DNA of 6,751 bases from a virus (lineage: Duplodnaviria > Heunggongvirae > Uroviricota > Caudoviricetes), in the IMG/VR virus record IMGVR_UViG_2740892230_000023, one strand, 5' to 3'. Below, piece after piece: positions 1,185 through 6,751 of this stretch (positions are counted from its first letter, which is position 1; each line of letters begins with the position of its first letter). The notes under the pieces were generated by a model. That model was not told where the DNA came from. It made no database searches and worked only from the letters and a program-made list of their open reading frames with translations. The position numbers were made by a program, and so were the translations under genes.

Positions 1185-1859
1185 TTAGGCCTTTATTATG
1201 TATCTTCTTGGTTTTCCTGAGAAAATCACTGTACCAATTATAGAGCAATTACCGTTAATCTTAATGTAAGGCTCAGGCCAGTTTGGGTTTAATGCTTTGA
1301 GATAACGCTGTGTTCCATCTTCTATCAACCGCTTGAAGGTGGTTTCGCCTGAATCGTGCATCAATGCAATAACGTCGTCACCGTGGCAGGCAGGGACTTC
1401 AGGATCTACAAAAATCATGTCTCCCGGGCGGTACTCATCAATCATTGAATCACCAATCACCCGCAAGATATAAGTCATTTCGCCACAGGGTACAGGGCAG
1501 GGATAAGTTTCTGCTGTGCTCAAATCAACCTCAGAATAGCCAACTTCTTTCCATGCTCCGGCCTGTACCCATGATATGACAGGGACTAACGTTATTTGTT
1601 TGTTAGTAATTGAAACATCAGGTTTTTTTGTGATGTTTGTTGTCTGGTGTTCTTGATCAAGCCATCCGACAGGCAGGTCGAAACATTTTTCGATGTGCCG
1701 TGCCATGCTGTCACCGATATTTTTAGTAGCACCATCTCCCATAAACCTGCTGGTCTGGGTTGGCTCGCGATCAATCATGGTGGCAAAGGAAGAATTCCCG
1801 CCAACACCATCTCTCAGTTTTCTGGCGTTAGACCGCCGGATGTCATGGATTGTTTTCAT
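1185..1859 (-). CDS. cI: CI-type prophage repressor, N-terminal HTH domain plus C-terminal S24 (LexA/UmuD-like) autopeptidase domain
   Basis: 224-aa ORF. C-terminal half (LVPVISWVQAGAW...GDSM...VDPEVP...TFKRL...ALNPNWPEPYIKINGNCSIIG) resembles the cleavage domain of P22 C2 / lambda CI, including the Ser (GDSM) and Lys (FKRL) dyad. Divergent from a cro-like gene across a short operator region. Confidence 0.9.
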   Translation of the reverse strand: MKTIHDIRRSNARKLRDGVGGNSSFATMIDREPTQTSRFMGDGATKNIGDSMARHIEKCFDLPVGWLDQEHQTTNITKKPDVSITNKQITLVPVISWVQAGAWKEVGYSEVDLSTAETYPCPVPCGEMTYILRVIGDSMIDEYRPGDMIFVDPEVPACHGDDVIALMHDSGETTFKRLIEDGTQRYLKALNPNWPEPYIKINGNCSIIGTVIFSGKPRRYIIKA

Positions 1860-1949
1860 AACGAAATTAAAACCTTTGTACCGATAAGGTACAAGTATCT
1901 TGAAGGTTCATTTCAATCATGTAATATGTATATCGGAGGTACATATTGT
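1860..1949. promoter_or_regulatory. Divergent immunity control region (oR with pR/pRM equivalents) between cI and cro
   Basis: 90-bp intergenic region between divergent repressor genes. Palindrome TTGTACC-N5-GGTACAA at 1876-1894; candidate pR -35 TTGAAG (1900-1905) and -10 TAATAT (1922-1927); GGAGG RBS at 1935-1939 before the cro ATG at 1950; cI start codon at 1857-1859. Confidence 0.55.
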
Positions 1950-2150
1950 ATGAAAGCGTATTGGGACTCTTTAACCAAAGAACAGCAGGGCGAGTTGGCC
2001 GGAAAAGTTGGCTCAACACCTGGCTACTTACGGCTGGTTTTCAATGGTTATAAAAAAGCCAGTTTTGTGCTGGCGAAAAAACTTGAGCAATGCACGTCAG
2101 GTGCAATTACGAAATCTGACTTAAGACCGGATATCTATCCGAAAGATTAA
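1950..2150 (+). CDS. cro: Cro-like small DNA-binding regulator (Cro/YdaS family)
   Basis: 66 aa, MKAYWDSLTKEQQGELAGKVGSTPGYLRLVFNGYKKASFVLAKKLEQCTSGAITKSDLRPDIYPKD. RBS GGAGG 10 nt upstream; position opposite cI. The track ORF 1647-2150 is a spurious upstream extension antisense to cI. Confidence 0.8.
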   Translation: MKAYWDSLTKEQQGELAGKVGSTPGYLRLVFNGYKKASFVLAKKLEQCTSGAITKSDLRPDIYPKD

Positions 2151-2181
2151 CAGAACACCTTCAATTTTTAACCACAGAACG

Positions 2182-2751
2182 ATGAGGCTAACCGTGGGTA
2201 AGTATCACTGGAAAGTAGAAAAACAGCCTGAGTGGTACGTGAAAGCTGTCAGAAAAACTATCGCGGCGTTGCCGGGGGGTTACGCTGAAGCTGCTGAGTG
2301 GCTGGATGTAACAGAGAACGCTTTATTCAACCGCCTTCGTGCAGATGGCGATCAGATTTTCCCGCTGGGATGGGCAATGGTTTTACAGCGCGCGGCTGGC
2401 ACTCACTACATTGCGGATGCTGTCGCACAGTCTGCTGGTGGGGTGTTCGTATCGCTTCCTGAAATTGAGGAAGTAGAGAACGCCGATATAAACCAGCGCC
2501 TGCTGGAAGTCATCGAACAGATCGGGAATTACTCAAAGCAGATTCGTTCGGCAATCGAAGATGGGGTCGTGGAGCCACACGAGCAGACAGCAATTAATGA
2601 TGAGTTGTATCTGTCAATTTCGAAGCTCCAAGAGCATGCAGCACTGGTCTACAAAATCTTTTGCGCTCCAGAAAAGAGTGACGCCCGCGAGTGTGCAGCT
2701 CCGGGCGTCGTGGCGTCGATTGCTTCTGGTTGTGGAGAAACTAACGCATGA
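2182..2751 (+). CDS. CII-like / YdaT-like early regulatory protein (family assignment tentative)
   Basis: 189-aa ORF directly downstream of the cro-like gene, the position taken by cII in lambda and ydaT in Rac-type prophages. Start may be ATG 2182 or GTG 2194 (GAGG upstream). Stop overlaps the next ATG (ATGA at 2748-2751). Confidence 0.6.
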
Positions 2752-3086
2752 ACAGTTTAACAACACACTACCGTCGCTCGCAACTGATTGCGCTTCCTGT
2801 ACCGGGTGGAAAAGCGAAGGTGGAGTATTGCTATGCAGTGAATGTACCAGGTGACAGGGAAATTGTAACCCACAGCTTTGCAGAGTGGGCTGTGGGTGAT
2901 TTCAACCGGCAGAAGGAGACAGTCCTTTGCGACAAGTTAACCGCTGGTTCAAAGATCACTACGGAGTGCCCGTCAGAGTCATTCGTTGGGAGCCGGAAAC
3001 ACAACGGGTTATCTACCTCCGTGAAGGCTATGAACATGAATGCTTCAGTCCGCTCGAACAGTTTCGTCGTAAATTCAGGGAAATAG
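2748..3086 (+). CDS. Small hypothetical protein; only the N-terminal ~60 codons look coding, the 3' part overlaps ORF 2927-3139 in another frame
   Basis: ATG overlaps the upstream stop (ATGA coupling). The first ~60 codons have ordinary composition; the remainder is Ser-rich with rare codons, like an out-of-frame read of the overlapping gene. Confidence 0.35.
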
Positions 3087-3139
3087 AGGTCGGTCATGAG
3101 CCTGTTAATGACATCCCAGCCCATTGTGATAAATCGTGA
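2927..3139 (+). CDS. Small conserved prophage protein (about 70 aa), TTG start with strong SD
   Basis: AGGAG at 2914-2918, 8 nt before TTG 2927. Translation ...[54 protein letters not shown]... has protein-like composition. Overlaps the start of the O-like gene by 44 nt. Confidence 0.6.
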
Positions 3140-4088
3140 TCTTGCATGCCGTATTGGTCTGAATGAGGCAATTGTGTTGCAGCAGCTTCATTACTGGCTG
3201 AATGAAACGAATTCAGGCACTGAGCATGGCGGAATTCGCTGGGTTTATAACACGACAGAACAGTGGCTGGAGCAGTTTCCGTTCTGGTCAGAGTCCACTC
3301 TGAAACGCACATTTGCAAGCCTGAAATCACTTGGGGTTTTGCGTCGCGAGCAACTCAATAAATCGAAGCGTGACATGACCAACTTCTACACGATCAACTA
3401 TGAAAGTGAGCTTTTAGAAGAGGTCAAAGTGAACGAATCCATCAGGTCAAAATGCACTTCTCCATCGGGTCAAAGTGACCTGATGGATGGGCGCAAAATG
3501 ATACGATCCATTGGTTCAAAACGACACGCTGTCATCGGGTCAAAATGGCCCAATGATCTTACAGAGAATACAACAGAGATTACTACAGAGAATAAAACCT
3601 CTTCTCGTCCGGACGCTTCGCAACCGGACACGCAAACGGCTGAACAGGAGTTTTTAACTCGCCATCCTGATGCGGTTGTATTCAGCCCTAAAAAGCGCCA
3701 GTGGGGAACGCAGGATGATTTGACCTGCGCACAGTGGCTCTGGAAAAAAATCATCGCCCTGTACGAGCAGGCCGCCGAATGTGACGGCGAGGTGGTTCGT
3801 CCCAAAGAACCGAACTGGACAGCATGGGCAAACGAAATTCGCCTGATGTGTGTGCAGGATGGTCGTACTCACAAACAAATCTGCGAGATGTACAGCCGCG
3901 TCAGCCGCGATCCGTTCTGGTGCCGTAACGTGCTCAGCCCGTCGAAGTTGCGGGAAAAATGGGATGAGCTTTCCCTGCGCTTATCGCCGTCCGTCAGCAC
4001 GCACACAGAAAAACGTGAAGACCCGTACTTCAAAGCCAGTTACGACAACGTGGACTACAGCCAGATCCCGGCAGGATTCAGGGGGTGA
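3096..4088 (+). CDS. Replication initiator / replisome organiser (lambda O-like N-terminal region, origin-containing linker, DnaT-like C-terminal domain)
   Basis: 330 aa; RBS GAGG 8 nt before ATG 3096. The central region carries iterons at the DNA level. The C-terminus ...YSQIPAGFRG closely resembles the C-terminal end of E. coli primosomal protein DnaT (...SQIPPGFRG, recalled from memory). Confidence 0.85.
   Translation: MSLLMTSQPIVINRDLACRIGLNEAIVLQQLHYWLNETNSGTEHGGIRWVYNTTEQWLEQFPFWSESTLKRTFASLKSLGVLRREQLNKSKRDMTNFYTINYESELLEEVKVNESIRSKCTSPSGQSDLMDGRKMIRSIGSKRHAVIGSKWPNDLTENTTEITTENKTSSRPDASQPDTQTAEQEFLTRHPDAVVFSPKKRQWGTQDDLTCAQWLWKKIIALYEQAAECDGEVVRPKEPNWTAWANEIRLMCVQDGRTHKQICEMYSRVSRDPFWCRNVLSPSKLREKWDELSLRLSPSVSTHTEKREDPYFKASYDNVDYSQIPAGFRG
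3419..3600. repeat. Iteron-type origin of replication inside the initiator gene: 5-6 iterons (core GGTCAAARTG, about 23-bp spacing) then an A-rich tract with three 12-bp ACAGAGA repeats
   Basis: Cores at 3422, 3445, 3468, a degenerate copy at about 3491, 3513 and 3538; ACAGAGA at 3561, 3573 and 3585. Same layout as ori-lambda inside gene O. Confidence 0.6.
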
Positions 4089-4090
4089 TC

Positions 4091-4579
4091 ATGAGTCTTT
4101 TGAATGAAGTTCAGAAATTCATTGAAGCCCATCCGGGGTGTACTTCCGGAGACATTGCGGATGCTTTTGCAGGTTACTCACGGCAGCGCGTTCTGCAGTC
4201 AGCAAGCAAGTTACGTCAGAGTGGGCGTGTGGCTCACCGTTGTGAAGGGGATACACGCAGACATTTTCCGCGCCAGATAAAGATATCGCCGGAGGCGGAA
4301 CGGCAACCAGTTCGTGAAACCAGACCTGTGCGCAATTTCTATGTCGGCACTAACGACCCGCGGGAGATTTTATGCCTGACCCGCCAGGCTGAAGAACTGG
4401 AGTCCAGGGGCTTATACCGTCGTGCTGCAACGGTGTGGATGGCGGCATTCCGTGAAAGCCACTCCCAGCCAGAACGAAACAATTTTCTGGCGCGTCGTGA
4501 GCAGTGTTTACGGAAAAGCAGCAAGCGCGCTGTATCGGGTGATGAGTGGTATCTGTCAGGGAATTACGTGGGGGCTTAA
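4091..4579 (+). CDS. PerC/ANR-family-like transcriptional regulator with an N-terminal extension (possible winged helix)
   Basis: C-terminal region ...AEELESRGLYRRAATVWMAAFRESHSQPERNNFLARREQCLRKS matches the PerC-family pattern (G-x-[WY]-RRAA-x-x-W ... RR-x-x-C-x-x-KS, recalled). Starts ATG 4091 (or GTG 4085) overlapping the upstream stop; its stop overlaps the methylase ATG (TAATG at 4577-4580). Confidence 0.7.
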   Translation: MSLLNEVQKFIEAHPGCTSGDIADAFAGYSRQRVLQSASKLRQSGRVAHRCEGDTRRHFPRQIKISPEAERQPVRETRPVRNFYVGTNDPREILCLTRQAEELESRGLYRRAATVWMAAFRESHSQPERNNFLARREQCLRKSSKRAVSGDEWYLSGNYVGA

Positions 4580-4607
4580 TGAGTAATAAATATTGCCNNN
4601 NNNNNNN

Positions 4608-4691
4608 GTTAAATGACGTTCAGAAATTCATTGAAGCCCATCCGGGCTGTACTTCCGGAGACATTGCGGATGCTTTTTACGTGGGGGCTTA
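4608..4691 (+). other. Allelic fragment: in-frame internal-deletion variant of the PerC-like gene joined to the methylase start
   Basis: 4615-4668 matches 4107-4160 (one substitution in the first few codons) and then joins directly to the gene's last codons (tacgtgggggcttaATGagtaataaatattgcc), reading ...DIADAFYVGA*. Preceded by an N run at 4598-4607. Confidence 0.55.
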
Positions 4692-5496
4692 ATGAGTAAT
4701 AAATATTGCCAGGCGCTGGTAGAACTGCGGAACAAACCAGCCCATGAACTGAAGGAAGTGGGCGATCAGTGGCGCACGCCGGACAACATTTTCTGGGGAA
4801 TTAACACCCTGTTTGGCCCGTTTGTTCTGGATCTGTTCACCGACGGTGATAACGCCAAATGCGCTGCGTATTACACGGCGGAAGACAACGCGCTGGCGCA
4901 TGACTGGTCAGAACGCCTTGCGGAGCTTAAAGGTGCTGCCTTTGGAAATCCCCCATACAGCCGCGCCAGTCAGCATGAGGGGCAATACATCACCGGCATG
5001 CGTTACATCATGAAGCATGCCAGTGCCATGCGTGATAAGGGCGGGCGCTATGTTTTCCTGATCAAAGCTGCCACCAGCGAAGTGTGGTGGCCGGAAGATG
5101 CAGATCATATTGCTTTTATTCGCGGGCGTATTGGTTTTGAACTGCCTGCCTGGTTTATCCCGAAGGATGAGAAGCAGGTGCCGACAGGCGCTTTCTTCGC
5201 TGGTGCTATTGCTGTTTTCGACAAGACCTGGAAGGGACCGGCAATCAGCTATATCGGGCGCGATGAACTTGAGGCATGTGGTGAGGCGTNNNNNNNNNNT
5301 CTGGTTTATCCCGAAAGACGAGAAGCAGGTACCGACAGGAGCTTTTTTCGCTGGTGCTATTGCTGTTTTTGACAAGACCTGGAAGGGACCGGCAATCAGC
5401 TACATTGGGCGCGATGAACTTGAGGCATGTGGTGAGGCGTTTCTGGCGCAGGTTCGCCTGCAGGCAGAACGGCTGGTCAGGGAGATAGTGGCATGA
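4692..5496 (+). CDS. Phage Dam-family DNA N6-adenine methyltransferase (orphan methyltransferase); coordinates inflated by an N gap and a 141-bp allelic overlap
   Basis: WRTP and NPPY motifs and overall resemblance to lambdoid/Stx-phage Dam methylases. N run at 5290-5299; 5300-5440 duplicates 5149-5289. Track ORF 5098-5496 is the same frame after the gap. Stop overlaps the rusA-type ATG (ATGA at 5493-5496). Confidence 0.85.
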
Positions 5497-5526: not shown

Positions 5527-5563
5527 NNNNNNNNNNGGAAAAGCTGGTCAGGGAGATGGCGGC

Positions 5564-5986: not shown

Positions 5987-6026
5987 NNNNNNNNNNTCAC
6001 TGGTTACATGAGAGAGGCCTGAAAGT

Positions 6027-6435: not shown

Positions 6436-6751
6436 ATGAATAATCTGATGGTTATTGATGGTATTGAAGTTCGTCGTGATGCTTATGGGCGTTACAGCCT
6501 GAACGATCTGCATCGGGCTGCTGTTGCATCTGGTGCAAATGCCAGAACTAAGGAGCCGGGAAAGTTTCTTTCCAGCCAACAGATTACTGAGCTGGTTCAG
6601 GAATTGATCGATACCCAAAATTTGGGTGTCGGTTCATTCAATGAAACTACCCAAAATTTGGGTAGTAAACCAGTAAGTAAAATAGAAGGGCGGAATGGAG
6701 GAACGTATGTCTGCAAGGAACTGGTGTATGCCTATGCAATGTGGATCAGCC
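6436..6751 (+). CDS. KilA-N domain protein (antirepressor/Roi-like), 3'-truncated by the window end
   Basis: ATG 6436 with AGAGGAG about 10 nt upstream. MNNLMVIDGIEVRRDAYGRYSLNDLHRAA...GGTYVCKELVYAYAMWIS has the characteristic KilA-N motif. Absent from the ORF track because no stop falls inside the window. Confidence 0.7.
   Translation, partial: MNNLMVIDGIEVRRDAYGRYSLNDLHRAAVASGANARTKEPGKFLSSQQITELVQELIDTQNLGVGSFNETTQNLGSKPVSKIEGRNGGTYVCKELVYAYAMWIS

Follow-up and report, generated by a model that had tools for sequence, protein, structure and literature searches.

Where a lambdoid prophage begins the replication of its own DNA is the question raised by a 6,751-nucleotide (nt) stretch of viral DNA (Duplodnaviria; Heunggongvirae; Uroviricota; Caudoviricetes), IMG/VR record IMGVR_UViG_2740892230_000023, which is referred to here in its entirety as the window. 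It contains a gene encoding an O-like replication initiator of 330 amino acids (aa), located at 3096-4088 on the + strand, and inside this gene an array of 23-nt repeats (iterons) is followed by an A-rich stretch built of 12-nt repeats. Judged from the sequence and its comparison with known origins, positions 3417-3599, in the linker-coding part of the prophage's own initiator gene, very probably constitute a vegetative replication origin of the lambda type. Such an embedded origin is the expected arrangement and belongs to a known kind of origin, with no new mechanism involved.

The Iteron Array and the Adjoining A-Rich Stretch

Six in-register 23-nt units occupy 3417-3555, with spacings of 23, 23, 23, 23, and 24 nt. 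A repeat finder returned five 23-nt copies (at 3417, 3440, 3463, 3509, and 3533), and a sixth, degenerate copy at 3486 occupies the 46-nt gap left between units; Tandem Repeats Finder (TRF) reported a period of 23 across 3421-3478. The family consensus is cATcAGGTCAAAATGAcCcGATc, in which positions 2, 9-12, 15, and 22 are nearly invariant. The degenerate 14-mer ATYRGKTCAAARYG occurs four times in the window, always on the + strand and always within the array, compared with 0.01 occurrences expected from 200 dinucleotide shuffles, and the iteron core is found nowhere in the window outside the array.

All units lie on the + strand: unit 1 at 3417-3439 (GAAGAGGTCAAAGTGAACGAATC, its core in codon phase 1 and its left arm weak), unit 2 at 3440-3462 (CATCAGGTCAAAATGCACTTCTC, phase 3), unit 3 at 3463-3485 (CATCGGGTCAAAGTGACCTGATG, phase 2, a near-palindrome with 18/23 positions self-complementary), unit 4 at 3486-3508 (GATGGGCGCAAAATGATACGATC, phase 1, degenerate here but GAAGAGGTCAAARTGA... 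in relatives), unit 5 at 3509-3531 (CATTGGTTCAAAACGACACGCTG, phase 3), and unit 6 at 3533-3555 (CATCGGGTCAAAATGGCCCAATG, phase 3, 16/23 self-complementary, aligning with lambda iteron 4). The units differ in strength: four are strong, and the weaker two are those at 3417, which lacks the left arm, and at 3486, which has a degenerate core. In relatives with ~81% identity over the N-terminal domain, a good AGGTCAAAR core is present in 6/6 units. Units 2 and 3 are linked, left arm to right arm, by a perfect 13-nt inverted repeat (3437-3449 and 3476-3488, ATCCATCAGGTCA and TGACCTGATGGAT), and a cruciform could form there. GATC sites show no enrichment in the array by simple count, without statistics, with two in ~220 nt.

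Immediately to the right, a purine-skewed, A-rich stretch at 3556-3599 (+ strand) is a candidate DNA-unwinding element, identified by TRF, composition, stability, and third-codon conservation. Three head-to-tail copies of ACAGAGAWTAMW (3561-3572, 3573-3584, and 3585-3596) are found in it against 0.13 expected, a number that no shuffle reached, and TRF detected a period of 12 across 3561-3598 with 3.2 copies and 80% matches. The composition of 3556-3599 (GC 0.32, A 0.50, T 0.18, purines 0.64) is accompanied by low nearest-neighbour stability: no other 40-mer of the gene is as unstable as 3558-3597 (-44.6 kcal/mol versus a window mean of -55.5 +/- 4.1), and this only strongly destabilised segment of the coding region directly adjoins the iteron array. 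The balance tilts slightly toward the 12-mers specifically being the unwinding element. The first-pass annotation had described five to six copies on a ~23-bp period, followed by three 12-mers in an A-rich stretch, and had proposed a repeat finder as a check of the periodicity. Both descriptions proved accurate and the register held; the limits it gave, 3419-3600, were right within two bases, with 3417-3598 as better boundaries.

The Initiator Protein and Its Domains

The same annotation had placed the repeats inside an initiator gene, and protein comparisons bear this out. The 330-aa product matches phrog_391, 'replication initiation O-like', over its full length (E = 7e-102), and its gene is 98.2% identical at the nucleotide level to that of phage mEp460_4F5, whose annotated start corresponds to the alternative start at 3108. 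When compared with lambda O by BLASTP, residues 147-294 aligned with lambda O residues 135-270 (148 residues, 33% identity, E = 1e-26); the C-terminal part alone aligned, and the N-terminal domain was without a match. Scans of the whole initiator with Pfam (E <= 0.01) and NCBIfam returned zero families, and phmmer searches of PDB sequences with the protein and with a profile of the C-terminal domain yielded nothing meaningful.

An AlphaFold2 model, computed from a shallow alignment and with a mean predicted local distance difference test (pLDDT) score of 55, suggests two folded parts. A winged-helix-like domain (residues 12-101, with the pattern H-H-E-E-H-H-E-E over 14-101, pLDDT 54-72) is predicted within aa 1-107, encoded at 3096-3416 (+ strand) and taken here as the putative DNA-binding (specificity) domain. 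The second part is a helical domain at residues 183-298 (3642-3989, + strand; block mean pLDDT 60-83), homologous to the C-terminal domain of lambda O, and between the two the model places a disordered segment (residues 103-178, pLDDT 25-45). Every Foldseek match of the model in PDB was a winged helix-turn-helix (wHTH) DNA-binding domain, all of them weak, the best being 4pql_B, 'N-terminal domain of DNA binding protein' (E = 0.04). The N-terminal region also gave PHROG matches to initiator and DnaD-like N-terminal families. The structure matches are consistent with a wHTH fold of the N-terminal domain, as a hint.

The array spans codons 108-168 and therefore lies within the interdomain linker. 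The earlier proposal that the iterons encode a repetitive linker between the two domains holds for the linker; as a peptide it is repetitive only in part (I[RG]SK three times, TEN/TEI).

Comparison with Lambda and Other Origins

In lambda (NC_001416), four iterons at 39034-39118, spaced by 20, 24, and 23 nt, lie in the middle of gene O and are followed by an AT-rich run. In both loci the origin sits within the initiator gene, in the part that encodes the interdomain linker. The direct repeats follow one another at a distance of about two helical turns and have an A-tract centre, with partial dyad symmetry that is clear here in units 3 and 6. A stretch of low stability with a purine skew comes immediately downstream (-44.6 here and -44.1 kcal/mol per 40-mer in the lambda AT-rich region), and the C-terminal domains of the proteins are homologous. 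Right at the beginning of the protein alignment, the last unit and the 12-mers (IGSKWPNDLTENTTEITTENK) are paired with lambda LGDCYPSKQGDTKDTITKEKRK, a segment encoded by lambda iterons 3-4 together with the first part of the AT-rich region. The C-terminal alignment to lambda O thus superimposes the two origins, with the last unit opposite lambda iteron 4, and the first-pass view that the region matches the architecture of ori-lambda is upheld by this superposition. There are also differences: six units instead of four, the core GGTCAAAATG instead of CCCTCAAAACGAGGG, an A-rich part made of three clean 12-mers, an N-terminal domain without detectable kinship, the absence of a P gene after O, and a DnaT-like protein tail that lambda O does not have.

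The position homologous to ori-lambda bears on a different role for the units, namely that they are initiator-binding sites used mainly for autoregulation, copy control, or exclusion of related phages, with DNA opening taking place elsewhere. Iterons have control roles in plasmids. Unwinding at 3556-3599 is only proposed here, and cloned lambda origin fragments inhibit homologous phages (PMC3349717, PMC4488673), which would suit such a role. Set against it, besides the position, are the placement of the sole strongly destabilised coding segment next to the array and the absence of the iteron core from the rest of the window, and we regard this explanation as improbable.

Locating lambdoid origins from repeats of this type is established for lambda, P22, phage L, and Stx phages (PMC8022706, PMC7466680). 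In the Stx phages 933W and P27, the middle part of O holds six iterons plus an AT-rich tract, and the extra iterons lengthen the linker (PMC7466680). However, 933W and P27 carry true lambda O/P modules with lambda-type iterons, whereas the window has another N-terminal domain, other iterons, and no P. In the lambda and Stx origins, a GC-richer replacement of the AT-rich tract leaves O binding unchanged (PMC7466680). Gene 18 of P22 and gene 18 of phage L encode distant O-like initiators with their own repeats within the coding region, found by sequence inspection (PMC8022706); in these phages the partner gene encodes a DnaB-type helicase (gp12), and the repeat sequences differ from those of the window. 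The SfII/SfIV/SfV-type and Stx2a_1447-type O-like genes (loci L003, L004, and L088) have in common with the window the downstream module, the same C-terminal tail, and the presence of repeats in the linker. The SfIV genome paper contains no discussion of the origin.

Two other assignments were considered and rejected. A plasmid-type iteron origin (RepA/pi/RepE class) does not fit an intragenic array and the lack of DnaA boxes, the motif TTWTNCACA being found zero times in the window. A strict lambda O/P module would have a downstream P gene and an N-terminal domain of the Phage_rep_O family, neither of which was found; of the features compared, the C-terminal homology is the one present here.

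Conservation of the Repeats as DNA

Repeats inside a coding sequence could simply be the trace of a repetitive, low-complexity linker in the protein, without any role at the DNA level. The region does code for a disordered linker in which I[RG]SK and TEN/TEI recur. However, the units start in codon phases 1, 3, 2, 1, 3, and 3, so that the same core is read in all three frames, since a 23-nt period does not divide into whole codons. The GGTCAAAR cores are translated as EVKV, IRSKC, SGQSD, GRKM, IGSKR, and IGSKW; one DNA core yielding EVKV, IRSKC, SGQSD, and GRKM in three phases contradicts the peptide explanation. The incomplete repetitiveness of the linker peptide is likewise due to the 23-nt period shifting the frame of the core, which strengthens the reading of the array as a DNA signal.

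Related genes provided a second line of evidence. With the N-terminal 107 residues alone as the query, 80 IMG/VR loci were retrieved, comprising 63 distinct gene sequences and forming two groups whose N-terminal domains are 100% and ~81% identical in protein sequence to that of the window. Across these loci, the six-unit register and the 12-mers are preserved while the spacers and the encoded peptide drift, and the homologue in HannyBb (78% nucleotide identity) has the same six-unit register and retains the 12-mers. Variation at third codon positions was compared among 49 distinct sequences by the Fisher test, with the N-terminal domain as the reference. Variable sites made up 74/101 in the N-terminal domain, 5/17 in the GGTCAAAR cores (p = 1.3e-3), and 1/12 in the 12-mers (p = 1.9e-5); for cores and 12-mers combined, p = 5e-7. 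Since these classes of sites share one tree, relatedness alone cannot account for the contrast. The repeats are constrained as DNA beyond coding needs. With core third-codon sites far less variable than those of the folded N-terminal domain, and with the peptide between the cores varying freely, the peptide explanation is hardly credible.

Natural length variants also fit an iteron array, as they include whole-unit deletions. In protein cluster P0013, 31 residues (93 nt) are missing in frame, corresponding to four units. A version cut at 119 aa occurs in two loci (L053 is the one listed) and is read as the loss of one 23-nt unit combined with a frameshift. Copies of the 12-mer number three or four across loci, with four in L069 and L074, and L058 carries a 15-nt insertion in unit 1.

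Exchange of the Specificity Module

A module junction was located at 3586-3596, with the N-terminal domain and origin module on the left and an exchangeable C-terminal module on the right. The similarity with SfII and SfIV begins at query positions 491 and 497 (window 3586-3592), and from there the entire C-terminal domain is shared with 97-98% nucleotide identity. Their N-terminal domain is unrelated, and their linker repeats differ, having a 15-nt period (GACCCGTCAAAATCT) in the same place. In the opposite direction, relatives with the window-type N-terminal domain and iterons have at least two other types of C-terminal domain, which diverge right after the third 12-mer. The breaks at this junction in both swap directions indicate that the N-terminal domain, the iterons, and the 12-mers are one exchangeable unit, which is a classical lambdoid 'specificity module'. 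Consistently, the iteron sequence co-varies with the N-terminal domain, three N-terminal types each having their own repeats. The third of these is that of Stx2a_1447, where five 16-nt repeats (GTGCAGGAGATTCACC) spaced 21-24 nt apart precede three 12-mers (GAACCAGTCAAA); in its 'replication protein O' gene (locus L088), they lie at 2023-2128 and 2131-2171. The pattern of iterons followed by three 12-mers therefore recurs in Stx2a_1447 with unrelated sequences. This phage has a third type of C-terminal domain, yet its last 25 residues are identical.

A further explanation, compatible with the iterons serving as an origin, sees the 12-mers and the conserved sequence next to them primarily as a linker for recombination where two modules meet. 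Frequent exchange, and not a role in unwinding, would then account for their conservation. Swaps of either kind have their breakpoint at 3586-3596, relatives that have otherwise diverged keep almost the same 12-mers, and those of the Stx2a_1447 type do not appear AT-rich by eye, all of which would suit a linker. Their copy number, on the other hand, varies from three to four, as for a functional tandem element, and the stability minimum equals that of the lambda AT-rich region, which sits at the same place. A chiefly recombinational role is consequently considered unlikely, though less so than the regulatory role discussed above. Just to the right of the junction, a 14-nt direct repeat (3601-3614 and 3616-3629, CTTCTCGTCCGGAC and CTTCGCAACCGGAC), also present in SfII, may be part of the right side of the origin or due to chance; a 10-nt palindrome, CGTCCGGACG (3606-3615), lies inside it.

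Proposed Initiation at the Iteron Array

By analogy with lambda, initiation at the proposed origin would proceed through a series of steps. Transcription from an early rightward promoter upstream of the cro-like gene would come first, after which dimers of the initiator would bind the iterons through the N-terminal winged-helix domain. The bound dimers might wrap the DNA into an O-some-like complex, and the resulting stress could open the adjoining A-rich stretch. The C-terminal domain would then recruit the host DnaB helicase. Loading would presumably depend on host DnaC, as no lambda P gene was found in the window, in mEp460_4F5, or in the 80 loci, and, more speculatively, it may take place through the DnaT-like tail of the initiator.

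Several observations weigh against an origin of this kind. For the protein, Pfam Phage_rep_O gave no match to residues 1-107 even at E <= 10, and the wHTH assignment of this domain draws on weak structural matches and a model with a low mean pLDDT. With regard to the DNA, dyad symmetry is clear in 2/6 units (units 3 and 6), the remaining four being 10-12/23 self-complementary, and the A-rich stretch is less AT-rich than that of lambda (GC 0.32 versus 0.23). The appearance of the Stx2a_1447-type 12-mers at the same position, assessed by eye and not by computation, suggests that 12-mers may be something other than a simple unwinding element, and recent recombination at the module junction, as opposed to selection, may account for part of the low variation of the 12-mers. 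As for the surroundings, a strict sigma-70 scan of 1800-4200 found zero consensus promoters, so that the early rightward promoter was not located, and the window has no helicase loader gene of the P type after the initiator. Among the titles and abstracts found for mEp460, none concerned replication or an origin. These points are set against the superposition on ori-lambda, the DNA-level constraint, and the unit-wise variation, and the lambda-type origin is retained as the preferred reading.

Helicase Loading and the DnaT-Like Tail

The missing loader extends well beyond the window. The whole genome of mEp460_4F5 has no annotated P, DnaB, or DnaC, and a lambda P homologue was found in 0/80 of the related IMG/VR loci. 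In these loci the gene after the O-like gene encodes a wHTH and PerC-like protein in 66 cases, a Dam-like methylase in nine, and a DnaC-like AAA+ protein in one, and a wHTH and PerC-like gene also directly follows O in mEp460_4F5, SfII, SfIV, and Stx2a_1447. The PerC-like protein (4091-4579) holds the place of lambda P, whatever the type of C-terminal domain, and may be either a regulator or a partner in replication. A search of one literature collection for 'initiator-solo' modules gave no result.

The initiator of the window ends in SQIPAGFRG (4059-4085, + strand), which is 8/9 identical to the last nine residues of Escherichia coli DnaT (SQIPPGFRG); in the HannyBb homologue, 14/20 positions of the tail agree with DnaT residues 160-179, the last 20. 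Such a tail is present on 75/76 full-length relatives and on all three types of C-terminal domain, and it is not found on lambda O, so that the motif [DY]xxIPxGFRG is common to DnaT and three unrelated C-terminal domain types. The catalogued occurrences of the tail also include L002 3862-3918 and L087 2479-3018 (minus strand).

Similarity to DnaT does not reach beyond this tail. The C-terminal domain was rejected as a DnaT C-terminal domain (hhalign probability 0.3%), with the last 9-20 residues alone matching, and the name DnaT, given by RAST to the mEp460 and SfII homologues, was likewise rejected, with no Pfam DnaT match and similarity limited to the tail. E. coli DnaT has a DnaT N-terminal domain, whereas the protein of the window is without one. 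A fusion of an O N-terminus with a DnaT C-terminus, 'DopC', has been described in bacteria and was reported without iterons (PMC5509034). In a cryo-electron microscopy study of the preprimosome, the last residues of DnaT are assigned no role, and the recruitment of DnaB/DnaC by DnaT is stated to be unknown (PMC13377028).

It is possible, although doubtful, that the tail is a helicase-recruitment device that replaces P, a speculative proposal. Equally tentative is a broader version, in which a widespread class of lambdoid initiators, including that of the window, might work without a phage-encoded loader, the [DY]xxIPxGFRG motif acting either as a docking peptide for DnaB-DnaC or as a link to PriA/PriB/DnaT restart.

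Layout of the Window and Neighbouring Genes

The window corresponds to the immunity and early-right region of an mEp460-like lambdoid prophage. An S24 cI-like repressor gene (1185-1859, minus strand) is followed by a cro-like gene (1950-2150) and a CII/CP76-like gene (2182-2751). Two open reading frames (ORFs) in different frames then overlap by 160 nt: a 112-aa ORF at 2748-3086 (phrog_1170, E = 1e-69), the one annotated in phage records, and a DUF4222 ORF at 2927-3139 (PF13973, E = 1.5e-18, and phrog_1343), the gene annotated by the Prokaryotic Genome Annotation Pipeline (PGAP). The latter runs 32-44 nt into the start of the initiator gene. Downstream of the initiator lies the PerC-like gene already mentioned, encoding 162 aa with a PerC domain (PF06069, E = 8.8e-10; phrog_1324) and a wHTH-like N-terminal region, and after it come the Dam, LexA-like HTH, and RusA genes. 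Among the related phages, the PerC-like and LexA-like genes are common to the downstream module, Dam is present in SfII and Stx2a_1447 but not in SfIV, and RusA is annotated in SfII and Stx2a_1447. The gene starting at 6437 occupies the place of the KilA-domain gene of Stx2a_1447.

A scan of the window at the Rfam gathering threshold detected zero RNA families. All terminator-like matches in 1800-4200 fall outside 3400-3620, the nearest being at 3711-3695 within the O gene, and an antisense ORF at 3470-3805 (111 aa) was treated as spurious. Runs of ten N occur at 66-75, 248-257, 899-908, 1077-1086, 4598-4607, 5290-5299, 5527-5536, and 5987-5996, and each is followed by a near-duplicate of earlier sequence (for example, 909-1076 versus 1087-1256, and 4085-4597 versus 4608-4690). 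This pattern suggests that alternative assembly paths were concatenated in the window, as opposed to true tandem duplications, and ORFs across the ten-N runs are artefacts.

Distribution and Biological Significance

The N-terminal domain and origin module (3096-3600) was found in 1840/5426 complete E. coli genomes, about one third, with up to four copies per genome; the matches include 160 records at 99% identity or above and 1593 at 80-90%. In 7/8 of the best-matching genomes listed, PGAP names the gene 'hypothetical protein', and identifying it as an initiator gene that harbours an origin improves the annotation of prophages. The six GGTCAAAR iterons and three 12-mers provide a defined cis element for phage-derived replicons. 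Their identification helps to predict replication incompatibility or exclusion between co-resident prophages, and prophages that have lost iterons could be scored as defective.

The combination of a missing P gene with a DnaT-like tail offers a tractable system for studying the recruitment of the host helicase without a phage loader. If the tentative reading of the tail were true, the three 12-mers would be the single-strand landing site, and the tail would hint at a role for the last residues of DnaT and link the origin of DnaT to phage initiators.

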